NCBI RefSeq assembly: GCF_009931435.1
Contig: NZ_CP043414.1
DNA length: 64,000 bases
Direction: 5' to 3' (one strand)
Origin: Escherichia coli
GTDB lineage: Bacteria > Pseudomonadota > Gammaproteobacteria > Enterobacterales > Enterobacteriaceae
The translations under genes and the position numbers were made by a program. Below are positions 1 to 49,914 of the stretch, piece by piece (the first letter of the stretch is position 1; the number at the start of each line of letters is the position of its first letter). Below the pieces are notes generated by a model. It ran no database searches. It had not been told where the DNA came from and saw only the letters and a list, made by a program, of their open reading frames with translations.

Positions 1-185
<185 letters not shown>

Positions 186-11682: not shown

Positions 11683-12969
11683 TTACGCGTTATAGGCATT
11701 TTCACCGTGGCTGTTGACGTCCAGCCCTTCTCGTTCCTGCTCTTCCGGTACACGCAGACCAACCGTCAGATCCGCCAGTTTGTAGCCGATAAAAGCCACC
11801 ACACCAGACCAGACAATCGTAATGGCAATACTTTCCAGCTGTACCAGCAGCTGATGCCCCATCGTCACACCTTCGGCAAAACCCACTCCGCCCAGCGAAC
11901 TGGCGGCAAAAATCCCAGTCATGATACAGCCGACAATGCCACAAACGCCGTGCACACCGAAGACATCGCAGGGATCATCCACCCGCAGCAAGCGTTTGAG
12001 CATGGTAACGCCCCACAAGCCCGCCAGACCAGCGACTACGCCGATAATCAACGCGCCGCCAACACCAATGTAGCCACAGGCTGGCGTCACGCCGACCAGA
12101 CCGGCAATCGCGCCAGAACACGCCCCCAGCAGTGAAGGCTTACCGCGCAGCGCCCATTCACCGAAGATCCAGCCAAGAATTGCCGCCGCCGTTGCGACCA
12201 CAGTATTCACAAATGCCAGTGCTGCGATTTCATTCGCCATGCCCGCTGACCCGGCATTAAAGCCAAACCAACCGATATAGAGAATGGCAGTCCCGGTGAA
12301 GACCATCGGCAGGTTGTGCGGTTTAAACGCCTCTTTGCCGAAGCCCACGCGTTTGCCAATTAGATATGCGCCCACCAGACCTGCAATAGCGGCGTTAATG
12401 TGCACCACCGTGCCACCCGCAAAATCCAGCGCACCGTGAGAAGCCAGCAAACCGCCGCCCCAGACCATATGCGCAATCGGAATGTAAGAAAGCGTCAGCC
12501 ACACCACCACGAAAATCAGCACAGCTGAGAAGCGGATCCGTTCCGCCAGTGCCCCGACGATCAAGCCGACGGTAATGCAGGCAAACGATCCCTGAAACGC
12601 CACGTGGATATACTGATAAATGCTGCCCATCACCGCCGTCAGTTCGATGTTTTTCAGCATCAACCAGTTAATGTTACCGAAGAAGTTGTTGCCCTCACCA
12701 AACGCCAGCGAGTAGCCGTAAACCACCCAGAGAATGCAGACCAGAGCAAACGTCACCGTCACCTGCGTCAGCATCGACAGCACGTTTTTGCCGCGAATTA
12801 ACCCACCGTAAAACAGGGCAATCCCCGGAATAGTCATAAACAGCACCAGCGCAGTACAAATCATCATAAACGCATTGTCGGCTTTATCGGCCACCGCAGG
12901 TGCAGCCATTACCAGTCCCGGCAGCATCGCCAGTGAAGCAAGCCCAGTTTTTATCGTCGCTATCTTCAT
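11683..12969 (-). CDS. amtB: Ammonium channel AmtB (428 aa)
   Basis: ORF MKIATIKTGLASLAMLPGLVMAAPAVADKADNAFMMICTALVLFMTIPGIALFYGG...; downstream of glnK. Confidence 0.97.
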   Translation of the reverse strand: MKIATIKTGLASLAMLPGLVMAAPAVADKADNAFMMICTALVLFMTIPGIALFYGGLIRGKNVLSMLTQVTVTFALVCILWVVYGYSLAFGEGNNFFGNINWLMLKNIELTAVMGSIYQYIHVAFQGSFACITVGLIVGALAERIRFSAVLIFVVVWLTLSYIPIAHMVWGGGLLASHGALDFAGGTVVHINAAIAGLVGAYLIGKRVGFGKEAFKPHNLPMVFTGTAILYIGWFGFNAGSAGMANEIAALAFVNTVVATAAAILGWIFGEWALRGKPSLLGACSGAIAGLVGVTPACGYIGVGGALIIGVVAGLAGLWGVTMLKRLLRVDDPCDVFGVHGVCGIVGCIMTGIFAASSLGGVGFAEGVTMGHQLLVQLESIAITIVWSGVVAFIGYKLADLTVGLRVPEEQEREGLDVNSHGENAYNA

Positions 12970-12998
12970 TTTTCGTTCCTGTTGCTGTGTGCCAGAGA

Positions 12999-13337
12999 TT
13001 ACAGCGCCGCTTCGTCGGCTTCGCCGGTACGAATACGAATGACGCGTTGCAATTCAGCGACGAAGATTTTGCCGTCGCCAATTTTTCCGGTGTAAGCCGC
13101 CTTGCTGACGATATCGATCACTTCATCGAGTTGGTCATCAGCAATCGCCACATCAATTTTTACTTTTGGCAGAAAGTTGACGCTGTATTCCGCCCCCCGG
13201 TACAGCTCGGCATGCCCTTTCTGACGCCCGAAACCTTTCACTTCGGTGACGGTCAGGCCCTGAATACCAATGGAAGATAACGCTTCACGAACGTCTTCCA
13301 GCTTGAATGGTTTGATTATCACGGTCACCAGCTTCAT
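12999..13337 (-). CDS. glnK: Nitrogen regulatory protein PII-2, GlnK (112 aa)
   Basis: Internal ATG of ORF 12999..13475 gives MKLVTVIIKPFKLEDVREALSSIGIQGLTVTEVKGFGRQKGHAELYRGAEY... Confidence 0.97.
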   Translation of the reverse strand: MKLVTVIIKPFKLEDVREALSSIGIQGLTVTEVKGFGRQKGHAELYRGAEYSVNFLPKVKIDVAIADDQLDEVIDIVSKAAYTGKIGDGKIFVAELQRVIRIRTGEADEAAL

Positions 13338-13388
13338 AGATCCCCTCCGGTCAGAATTCGGTAATGGTTCTGCTACACAAATAAGGTA

Positions 13389-13406
13389 TTGCAAGCGGTG
13401 TGCCAG
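13389..13406 (-). promoter_or_regulatory. sigma54 (-24/-12) promoter of glnK-amtB
   Basis: Minus strand reads cTGGCACaccgcTTGCAa (TGGCAC-N5-TTGCA) about 50 nt upstream of the glnK ATG; NtrC-like GCAC-N7-GTGC palindromes further upstream at 13459..13503. Confidence 0.7.
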
Positions 13407-13517
13407 AAATGAAAAACGAGAAAGAGAGCAGGAAGTTAAGAAGATTGAAAACAAAAACGCACTATGACAGTGCACAGTGCGTTACATTTTTGCACCAACG
13501 ATGAAATATTGCGCTAT

Positions 13518-17064
<3,547 letters not shown>

Positions 17065-21619: not shown

Positions 21620-22052
<433 letters not shown>

Positions 22053-29271: not shown

Positions 29272-29451
29272 TTCCGTCTCCTGGATAAAATTGAAAAAAC
29301 CTGCTGTACCGATTGTAACCTTATGGACGGATTATCAGCTAGTCCCTGTGTTATGGGTACGGCATCACCATATTTCAAGCATAACAATCTTTTGTTGTTA
29401 CGCTAACACCGAAAGAGGCTTTTCGCACGGTTCCATGCAAAATTCATGACA

Positions 29452-29488
29452 AAAAAAAGCCCACCACCTGGCGGTGACGGGCCTTTGT
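29452..29488 (-). terminator. Probable terminator after tig
   Basis: GC-rich imperfect hairpin (gcccaccacctggcggtgacgggc) followed by a T-run on the minus strand (aaaaaaaa on plus). Confidence 0.45.
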
Positions 29489-48051: not shown

Positions 48052-49914
48052 ATGAGTTTTGATATTGCCAAATACCCGACCCTGGCACTGGTCGACTCCA
48101 CCCAGGAGTTACGACTGTTGCCAAAAGAGAGTTTACCGAAACTCTGCGACGAACTGCGCCGCTATTTACTCGACAGCGTGAGCCGTTCCAGCGGGCACTT
48201 CGCCTCCGGGCTGGGCACGGTCGAGCTGACCGTAGCGCTGCACTACGTCTATAACACCCCGTTTGACCAATTGATTTGGGATGTGGGGCATCAGGCTTAT
48301 CCGCATAAAATTTTGACCGGACGCCGCGACAAAATAGGCACCATCCGTCAAAAAGGCGGCCTGCACCCGTTCCCGTGGCGCGGCGAAAGTGAATATGACG
48401 TGTTAAGCGTCGGGCATTCATCAACCTCTATCAGTGCCGGAATTGGTATTGCGGTTGCTGCCGAGAAAGAAGGCAAAAATCGCCGCACCGTCTGTGTTAT
48501 AGGCGATGGCGCGATTACTGCTGGCATGGCGTTTGAAGCGATGAATCACGCGGGCGACATCCGCCCGGACATGCTGGTTATTCTCAACGACAACGAAATG
48601 TCGATTTCCGAAAATGTTGGCGCGCTCAACAACCATCTGGCGCAGCTGCTTTCCGGCAAGCTTTACTCTTCACTGCGCGAGGGCGGGAAAAAAGTATTCT
48701 CCGGCGTTCCGCCCATTAAAGAGCTGCTCAAACGTACCGAAGAACATATTAAAGGCATGGTAGTACCAGGCACGCTGTTTGAAGAGCTGGGCTTTAACTA
48801 CATCGGCCCGGTTGACGGTCACGATGTGCTGGGGCTTATCACCACGCTTAAGAACATGCGCGACCTGAAAGGCCCGCAGTTCCTGCATATCATGACCAAA
48901 AAAGGTCGTGGTTACGAACCGGCAGAAAAAGATCCAATCACCTTCCACGCCGTGCCTAAATTTGACCCCTCCAGCGGTTGCCTGCCGAAAAGCAGCGGCG
49001 GCCTGCCAAGCTATTCAAAAATTTTTGGCGACTGGTTGTGCGAAACCGCAGCAAAAGACAACAAGCTGATGGCGATTACCCCGGCGATGCGCGAAGGTTC
49101 AGGCATGGTCGAGTTTTCACGTAAATTCCCGGATCGCTACTTCGACGTGGCAATCGCCGAGCAACACGCAGTGACCTTTGCTGCGGGTCTGGCGATTGGT
49201 GGCTACAAACCGATCGTGGCAATTTATTCCACTTTCCTGCAACGTGCCTATGATCAGGTGCTGCATGACGTGGCGATTCAAAAGCTCCCGGTCCTGTTCG
49301 CCATCGACCGCGCGGGCATTGTTGGTGCTGACGGTCAAACCCACCAGGGCGCTTTTGATCTCTCATACCTGCGCTGCATTCCGGAAATGGTCATTATGAC
49401 CCCGAGCGATGAAAACGAATGTCGCCAGATGCTCTATACCGGCTATCACTATAACGATGGCCCGTCAGCGGTGCGCTATCCGCGCGGCAACGCCGTTGGC
49501 GTTGAACTGACGCCACTGGAAAAACTGCCAATTGGCAAAGGCATTGTGAAGCGTCGTGGCGAGAAACTGGCGATCCTCAACTTTGGTACGCTGATGCCGG
49601 AAGCAGCGAAAGTCGCAGAATCGCTGAACGCTACGCTGGTCGATATGCGTTTTGTGAAGCCGCTTGATGAAGCGTTAATTCTGGAAATGGCCGCCAGCCA
49701 CGAGGCGCTGATCACCATTGAAGAAAACGCCATTATGGGCGGCGCAGGCAGCGGCGTGAACGAAGTGCTGATGGCCCATCGTAAACCAGTACCCGTGCTG
49801 AATATTGGCCTGCCGGACTTCTTTATTCCACAAGGAACGCAGGAAGAAATGCGCGCTGAACTCGGCCTCGATGCCGCCGGTATGGAAGCCAAAATCAAAA
49901 CCTGGCTGGCATAA
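48052..49914 (+). CDS. dxs: 1-deoxy-D-xylulose-5-phosphate synthase Dxs (620 aa)
   Basis: [58 protein letters not shown]... Confidence 0.98.

Follow-up and report, generated by a model that had tools for sequence, protein, structure and literature searches.

The spacer between the co-oriented genes mdlB and glnK in Escherichia coli raises the question of which signals it carries in the strain analyzed here, and how they are fitted together between the end of one operon and the start of the next. The original prediction, made from the sequence of this strain, described a sigma54 promoter with NtrC-type enhancer sites upstream of glnK-amtB. We examined this reading within the window, that is, the whole 64-kb stretch of DNA that was analyzed, and compared the spacer with its counterparts in K-12 and in other Enterobacteriaceae.

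Genomic context of the mdlB-glnK spacer

On the minus strand, the genes follow the order mdlA-mdlB-glnK-amtB, with tesB convergent, and K-12 shares the order mdlB-glnK-amtB-tesB with this strain. The locus is delimited by the following features:

13518–13520, minus strand: mdlB stop codon TGA (open reading frame list and RefSeq annotation of the matching region)
mdlB stop to glnK ATG, all minus strand: mdlB-glnK spacer, 180 bp
13342–13348, minus strand: Shine-Dalgarno sequence of glnK, GGAGGGG, with GGAG invariant in an alignment of 11 sequences
12999–13337, minus strand: glnK coding sequence (PII-2, 112 aa), with the ATG at 13337, which is the K-12 start
11683–12969, minus strand: amtB coding sequence (428 aa)

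Because GlnK is identical to its K-12 counterpart in 112 of 112 residues and AmtB in 427 of 428 (the sole substitution is T244M), the glnK-amtB operon is intact at the sequence level. The original prediction had read this intactness from the promoter; the claim holds by virtue of the identity of the two proteins to K-12, but a promoter alone is insufficient to show it. In the open reading frame list, glnK is stretched to a GTG at 13475 (158 aa; 12999–13475, minus strand), through the promoter, and over-extended GlnK entries of 141–193 aa occur in several database records; these long versions are start-codon mis-calls. A search of 12900–13700 yielded no sigma70-like promoter, and an Rfam search of 12900–13800 returned no family match at E ≤ 1.

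Of 5426 complete E. coli genomes, 5423 carry the 131-nt core with an identity of at least 95%. Among the 5423 complete genomes of E. coli that match over the wider region 12950–13750, 5417 are 95–99% identical to this strain, and just 6 match at 99% or above (99.1% in the best case, strain 2017-02-2CC); the window appears to derive from an Escherichia lineage that has been sampled only thinly. Aligned with MG1655, a 261-nt region shows 97% mean column identity and zero internal indels, and six substitutions separate this strain from K-12 across the spacer and leader. Two of these are in the T-run that follows the hairpin described below (TTTTTGTTTT here vs TTTTCATTTT in K-12), one is in the loop DNA (CAATCTT here vs CAAACTT in K-12), and two are in the proximal CT-rich block that includes the predicted transcription start (CCTTATTT here vs CCTTCTTC in K-12). 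The comparison with the K-12 promoter, which the original prediction had suggested as a check, was favorable: the core promoter and both enhancer motifs, namely the strong palindrome and the upstream half-site, are identical to those of MG1655, and the Shine-Dalgarno sequence and the spacing are likewise those of K-12 glnKp.

The sigma54 core promoter

Upstream of glnK, the promoter signals are as follows:

13390–13406, minus strand: sigma54 core promoter CTGGCACACCGCTTGCA (exact consensus and identity to the K-12 ChIP-seq site OS03)
13405–13400, minus strand: −24 element TGGCAC
13394–13390, minus strand: −12 element TTGCA
13379, minus strand: predicted transcription start (geometry rule of PMC4591121)

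The original prediction placed a TGGCAC-N5-TTGCA element on the minus strand about 50 nt upstream of the glnK ATG, and this is what we find: TGGCACACCGCTTGCA at 13405–13390 (minus strand) has zero mismatches to the consensus, its GG and GC doublets lie one helical turn apart, and the distance from the A of TTGCA to the ATG at 13337 is 53 nt. The core promoter is intergenic, co-oriented with glnK and located a short distance upstream of it. The exact motif occurs once in the 64-kb window vs 0.09 occurrences expected by chance, and with one mismatch allowed, 1 match was found in the window vs 1.97 expected. The geometry rule puts the predicted start 19 bp past the motif centre, which leaves 42 nt before the ATG; the base there is T, as against C in K-12. 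We found no experimentally mapped glnK start in the accessible literature, and the status of the glnK promoter in EcoCyc in 2015 was 'predicted' (PMC4591121).

A weight-matrix scan had also been proposed along with the original prediction. We trained a sigma54 matrix on 41 other intergenic ChIP-seq sites (PMC4591121) and scanned both strands, with a divided outcome: the glnK site, at 16.4 bits, exceeds the training median of 15.7 and ranks third in the window, but the best matrix score in random 64-kb sequences is 15.95 ± 1.6 bits. Because the glnK site falls inside these chance maxima, the matrix score is not used alone as evidence. Two plus-strand sites score comparably, CTGGCATTATTAATGCT at 21808–21824 (16.55 bits) and ATGGCGCGATTACTGCT at 48506–48522 (16.24 bits), and both are absent from the high-stringency ChIP-seq tables in the main text of PMC4591121. 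Elsewhere in the window, TTGTCATGAATTTTGCA at 29436–29452 (minus strand) is identical to the K-12 sigma54 ChIP-seq site OS02 upstream of clpP, and TTGGCGCGTTTCCTGCG at 132–148 (plus strand) is one base off the intragenic acrR sigma54 site IA05.

The strong NtrC site

Two GCAC-N7-GTGC palindromes had been put forward as enhancer sites, 60–110 bp further upstream. Both quoted strings are present on the plus strand, at 13458–13481 and 13491–13503, and lie 53–76 and 86–98 bp upstream of the 5′ end of the −24 element, so that the placement was roughly right. The first contains a true inverted repeat (GCAC-N7-GTGC at 13459–13473), whereas the second is a half-site only. The former corresponds to this feature:

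13458–13474, minus strand, centre 13466: strong NtrC (NRI) site TGCACTGTCATAGTGCG, a 17-bp inverted repeat

The centre of the strong site is at about −87 relative to the predicted start at 13379, which, like the centre of the upstream half-site element at about −120, falls in the range of roughly 80–150 bp before a sigma54 start that is typical of NtrC enhancers. With respect to the strict consensus TGCACC-N5-GGTGCA, TGCACTGTCATAGTGCG has 3 mismatches, and at no high-information position does it depart from the NtrC motif GCaCcaaaAtgGtGC that was derived by ChIP-exo in E. coli (PMC9853098). By themselves, the motif counts do not exceed chance: GCAC-N7-GTGC was found twice in the window vs 1.87 expected, and a search of the window with the strict consensus at 3 mismatches returned 34 matches vs 34.5 expected, which is uninformative. 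The significance lies in the combination. For a GCAC-N7-GTGC repeat at most 150 bp upstream of an exact sigma54 consensus, the expectation is about 1.87 × 150 / 64000 = 0.004, and the motifs are convincing because an exact consensus, a nearby inverted repeat and an orientation before an Ntr gene combine. The motif pair gains further support from where it lies relative to glnK, from being identical in K-12 and from its conservation across species. No better NtrC-like site was found in the mdlB-glnK spacer. The DNA between the enhancer and the promoter contains no match to the IHF motif WATCAANNNNTTR with two or fewer mismatches, and IHF-assisted looping was rejected given that the loop DNA has no IHF-like site.

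Published evidence from K-12 and related strains

In K-12, sigma54 ChIP-seq has identified CTGGCACACCGCTTGCA as a bound site (OS03), for which transcription is predicted to begin 42 nt ahead of glnK (PMC4591121). In a list of known sigma54 promoters, that of glnK spans −68 to −51 relative to the ATG; deletion of rpoN in K-12 brings glnK down 18.8-fold (PMC2831329). With regard to NtrC, peak 1 of the ChIP-seq data is glnK-amtB (39.7-fold), and glnK mRNA is lost upon deletion of glnG (PMC4066584). In genomic SELEX (gSELEX), RpoN holoenzyme and NtrC each gave a peak within the mdlB/glnK spacer (PMC8743547). Transcription of glnK depends on NtrC~P and has been treated in the field as a pure read-out of NtrC~P activity (PMC3870243). 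The glnK promoter of Salmonella, TGGCACATCCTTTGCAAT, rises from 1.1 to 1778 Miller units on nitrogen limitation, a change of ~1600-fold (PMC3844500). The evidence on NtrC comes from K-12 and NCM3722, at a resolution coarser than single sites. In particular, the NtrC ChIP-seq interval of Brown et al. spans ATG−81 to ATG−1, about 40 bp downstream of the palindrome (ATG−137 to ATG−121), an offset that is within ChIP-seq resolution and provides no site-level proof.

These data bear on the possibility that the motifs are chance matches devoid of a regulatory role in this strain. Such a view could appeal to the matrix score of 16.4 bits, within the random maxima, and to the comparable hits at 21808–21824 and 48506–48522 that do not appear in the main-text high-stringency tables. 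However, the expectation for the exact consensus is as low as 0.09, the position, orientation and cross-genus conservation all fit, and the sequence is identical to the K-12 sequence bound in experiments; the K-12 data effectively refute the chance explanation, to which we assign a negligible probability. We consider it very likely that the stretch corresponds to glnKp, from which the glnK-amtB operon is transcribed in nitrogen starvation. The reading of the stretch as a sigma54 promoter with an NtrC enhancer is upheld by its identity to a K-12 sequence for which sigma54 ChIP-seq, rpoN and NtrC data exist.

Conservation and spacing across Enterobacteriaceae

A degenerate scan of genome contigs for the N-terminus of glnK, with a pattern that demanded Ile-Ile at residues 7–8, recovered 10 loci, and further species were added by protein look-up. 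Spacers were gathered from E. albertii, E. whittamii, other Escherichia, Enterobacter sp. RIT418, K. pneumoniae, a Cedecea-like group (L018–L024), a BIT-l23-like group (L014–L017) and L021. The alignment comprised 11 Enterobacteriaceae sequences from at least six lineages, with a mean identity of 58%. The sole spacer blocks invariant in all 11 sequences are TGCAC-N7-GTGC (TGCAC...T.GTGC), TGGCA...TTGC and GGAG, that is, parts of the strong NtrC site, the core promoter and the Shine-Dalgarno sequence. The −24/−12 element is also present in Phaseolibacter, Orbus and Leminorella, and K. pneumoniae has a perfect TGCACC-N5-GGTGCA at the position of the strong site.

The distance from the centre of the strong site to TGGCA varies among the lineages:

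Escherichia: 61 bp
Enterobacter RIT418: 82 bp
Klebsiella, Cedecea-like and BIT-l23-like: 103–105 bp
L021: 58 bp
Escherichia sp. E1V33 (L010), which has an insertion: 206 bp

The series of 61, 82 and 103–105 bp suggests steps of about two helical turns, a reading that is only suggestive because L021 and E1V33 fall outside the series. In E1V33, a GC-rich, internally palindromic repeat element of ~145 bp is inserted right after AGTGCGT; the U-tract of the hairpin is gone, and the enhancer is now 206 bp from the −24 element. This insertion amounts to a natural test of the tolerance for enhancer distance.

A putative second NtrC site

The second of the two enhancer motifs is located further upstream:

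13491–13507, minus strand, centre 13499, about −120: putative weak second NtrC site ATTTCATCGTTGGTGCA

On the plus strand, tgcaccaacgatg (13491–13503) contains a single good half-site rather than an inverted repeat. Its consensus-like half is TTGGTGCA at 13498–13491 (minus strand), whereas its partner, ATTTCA, agrees with the consensus at 1 of 6 positions. In four lineages (Escherichia, Enterobacter RIT418, K. pneumoniae and L021), TGGTGCAAAA (13497–13488 in the present strain) is found at an exact 16-nt gap from the strong site, or 33 bp centre-to-centre. The Cedecea-like group has TGCACCGGACTGGCTAT, which is differently oriented and presents a consensus left half at a centre spacing of 32 bp; sites I and II of glnAp2 are also 32 bp apart (PMC5159524). 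Because the spacing of the half-site is conserved and a 32-bp spacing is seen both in the Cedecea-like group and in glnAp2, the enhancer probably consists of one strong and one weak NtrC site. We infer NtrC occupancy of the second site from this spacing, and the start site at 13379 from promoter geometry.

Alternatively, there could be a single NtrC site, with TGGTGCAAAA kept for another role, such as an A-tract partner of the terminator U-tract. The poor match of the left half of the second element and the differently oriented TGCACCGGACTGGCTAT that takes its place in the Cedecea-like group are compatible with this explanation, and AAAAUG pairs with the U-tract in the MFE fold. Nevertheless, the part that is conserved at the exact 16-nt gap in four lineages includes GGTGCA, which extends beyond the A-run; the consensus left half of the Cedecea-like group sits at precisely the spacing of the glnAp2 sites; and natural NtrC enhancers have been described as tandem sites (Levy et al., bioRxiv 10.1101/086108). 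We consider the single-site explanation rather unlikely, albeit by no means far-fetched, and favor an enhancer of one strong and one weak site.

In Enterobacter RIT418 (L011), K. pneumoniae (L013) and the BIT-l23-like group, a left half-site of the NtrC type shares bases with the mdlB stop (TGATGCACC/T...); at the same position, E. coli has TGAATAGCGCA.

A terminator-like hairpin over the strong NtrC site

The strong NtrC site coincides with a structure that is apparent at the RNA level:

13447–13483, minus strand: terminator-like hairpin with U-tract (terminator scan and fold)
13483–13456, minus strand: hairpin DNA AACGCACTGTGCACTGTCATAGTGCGTT, with the T-run TTTGTTTT next

The hairpin reads AACGCACUGUG-CACUGU-CAUAGUGCGUU (13483–13456), followed by UUUGUUUUC, and lies 35 nt past the mdlB stop. 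The terminator scan shows a stem of 11 bp, 5 of them G-C pairs, capped by a 6-nt loop and succeeded by the U-tract UUUGUUUU; the fold of 13520–13440 has an MFE of −20.1 kcal/mol and a z-score of −2.07. The hairpin and the T-run are kept in Escherichia, Enterobacter, Klebsiella, L021 and the Cedecea-like group, with predicted energies of −14 to −21 kcal/mol. On the strength of the scan and the predicted folds, the hairpin is probably the intrinsic terminator of mdlA-mdlB. The Term-seq supplements that were searched contain no mention of mdlB or glnK. As in ordinary Rho-independent terminators, a stem-loop and a U-tract follow a stop codon; the difference is that, here, the loop and the 3′ arm are also occupied, on the DNA, by a transcription factor site, namely the strong NtrC site.

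Covariation across the stem is of limited use. In an alignment of 8 distinct sequences, pairing is kept in 98.8% of cells; one pair shows a double-sided change (U-A to C-G) and four show wobble-compatible single changes, and 11 of 500 shuffles were equal or better. This signal is weak and confounded because any arm able to pair with one half of the NtrC site will inevitably look like the other half. The BIT-l23-like group is a natural control and a better argument than covariation: in these sequences, the mdlB stop is succeeded by a GC-rich hairpin of its own with TTTTC, and both the extra 5′ arm and the T-run are missing from the NtrC site.

This control is pertinent to a further alternative, under which the palindrome at 13456–13483 is merely the mdlA-mdlB terminator, its likeness to an NtrC site is incidental, and NtrC acts from elsewhere. 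The hairpin and U-tract 35 nt past the mdlB stop are indeed clear, the structure is conserved in five lineages, and GCAC-N7-GTGC occurs in the window at the chance rate. However, the BIT-l23-like sequences keep TGCACC/T-ATAAT-GGTGC without a T-run and with the terminator hairpin elsewhere; TGCAC-N7-GTGC is invariant in 11 of 11 sequences while the rest of the spacer varies; the perfect TGCACC-N5-GGTGCA of K. pneumoniae is in the same place; and the spacer is without any better NtrC-like site. A terminator devoid of an NtrC function is thus very improbable, and the preferred reading is that the strong NtrC site and the terminator of mdlAB probably form one merged element in E. coli.

A stronger version of this reading is that the strong NtrC site has been deliberately built into the mdlB terminator, such that the same 28 bp would serve as an RNA hairpin that ends mdlAB transcription and as the DNA enhancer of the following operon, with the overlap ancestral to Escherichia, Enterobacter, Klebsiella and the Cedecea-like group and split in at least one lineage, the BIT-l23-like group. 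We put this forward tentatively, as a possibility that we regard as somewhat doubtful. If it is true, bound NtrC~P and incoming mdlB transcription could affect each other, through a roadblock or through clearance of the enhancer, and the site-promoter distances of 61, 82 and 103–105 bp would reflect a helical-phase constraint.

CT-rich segments and predicted translational insulation

Two CT-rich segments lie downstream of the enhancer:

13418–13435, minus strand, between the enhancer and the −24 element: distal CT-rich block CTTCCTGCTCTCTTTCTC, a candidate anti-Shine-Dalgarno insulator against mdlB read-through
13379–13386, minus strand: proximal CT-rich motif, CCTTCTTC in K-12 and CCTTATTT in this strain

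When transcribed from upstream, glnKp has been reported to silence translation of the downstream gene via CT-rich anti-Shine-Dalgarno segments, and mutations in a 7-nt block centred at −4 relieved this insulation most in K-12 constructs (Levy et al., bioRxiv 10.1101/086108). The insulator effect was discovered in glnKp. Compared to the published case, the distal CT block is identical here, but the proximal 7-nt block, the most important one, is altered (C to A at 13382 and C to T at 13379), and the predicted pairing moves to the distal block. Specifically, in the predicted fold of the K-12 RNA, the Shine-Dalgarno sequence pairs with the proximal CCUUCUUC, whereas, in this strain, the proximal block reads CCUUAUUU and the predicted partner of the Shine-Dalgarno sequence is the distal CUCUCUUUCUC. 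The predicted probability that GGAGGGG is unpaired is 0.67–0.69 in the sigma54-initiated leader (0.69 in this strain) vs 0.01–0.04 in the read-through RNA (0.04 in this strain). In agreement with the published model, the CT-rich segments are predicted, from these folds, to mask the ribosome-binding site of glnK only in read-through RNA. Among other Escherichia, the proximal block reads CCTTTTTC in L004 and CCTTCTTT in L008. The changes in the proximal block constitute a natural test of the published insulator model.

Discussion

The picture that emerges is that of an element that is already known, being a known element in a well-studied organism, and that is intact and ordinary apart from an NtrC site inside an apparent upstream stop signal.

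In mechanistic terms, following what is established for NtrC/sigma54 systems, sigma54-RNA polymerase would wait as a closed, inactive complex on TGGCAC-N5-TTGCA (13405–13390, minus strand). Upon exhaustion of nitrogen, NtrB would phosphorylate NtrC, and dimers of NtrC~P would bind TGCACTGTCATAGTGCG at about −87 and, cooperatively, the weaker element of the half-site type 33 bp upstream, at about −120. NtrC~P would then form an ATPase ring that reaches the polymerase by looping out the T/CT-rich spacer of ~60 bp, and ATP hydrolysis by this ring would open the promoter. A start near 13379 would yield an mRNA with a 42-nt leader in which the ribosome-binding site is free. Against co-oriented transcription from mdlB, the promoter would be protected by two layers, the hairpin/U-tract terminator and the CT-rich segments.

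The arrangement resembles that of glnAp2, which likewise combines a −24/−12 promoter with NtrC~P bound at two sites about three helical turns apart. The two promoters differ in several respects. The sites of glnAp2 are at −140 and −108 (PMC5159524), whereas those of glnKp, at about −120 and −87, are nearer to the promoter. Furthermore, glnAp2 has two strong sites and three low-affinity 'governor' sites, as opposed to one strong and one weak site in glnKp, and overlaps the sigma70 promoter glnAp1, in contrast to glnKp, where no sigma70-like promoter accompanies the sigma54 promoter. Atkinson and colleagues reportedly observed, in 2002, that glnK requires more NtrC~P than glnA.

Taken together, the results mainly confirm the annotation of a canonical switch that responds to nitrogen starvation and controls the signal protein GlnK and the ammonium channel AmtB. 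Given that this switch is intact, the Ntr response of the strain should resemble that of K-12. The spacer packs a probable terminator, an enhancer and candidate translational insulators into ~130 bp between co-oriented operons and, as such, is a compact example of how a tightly silent sigma54 promoter may be kept free of upstream read-through.
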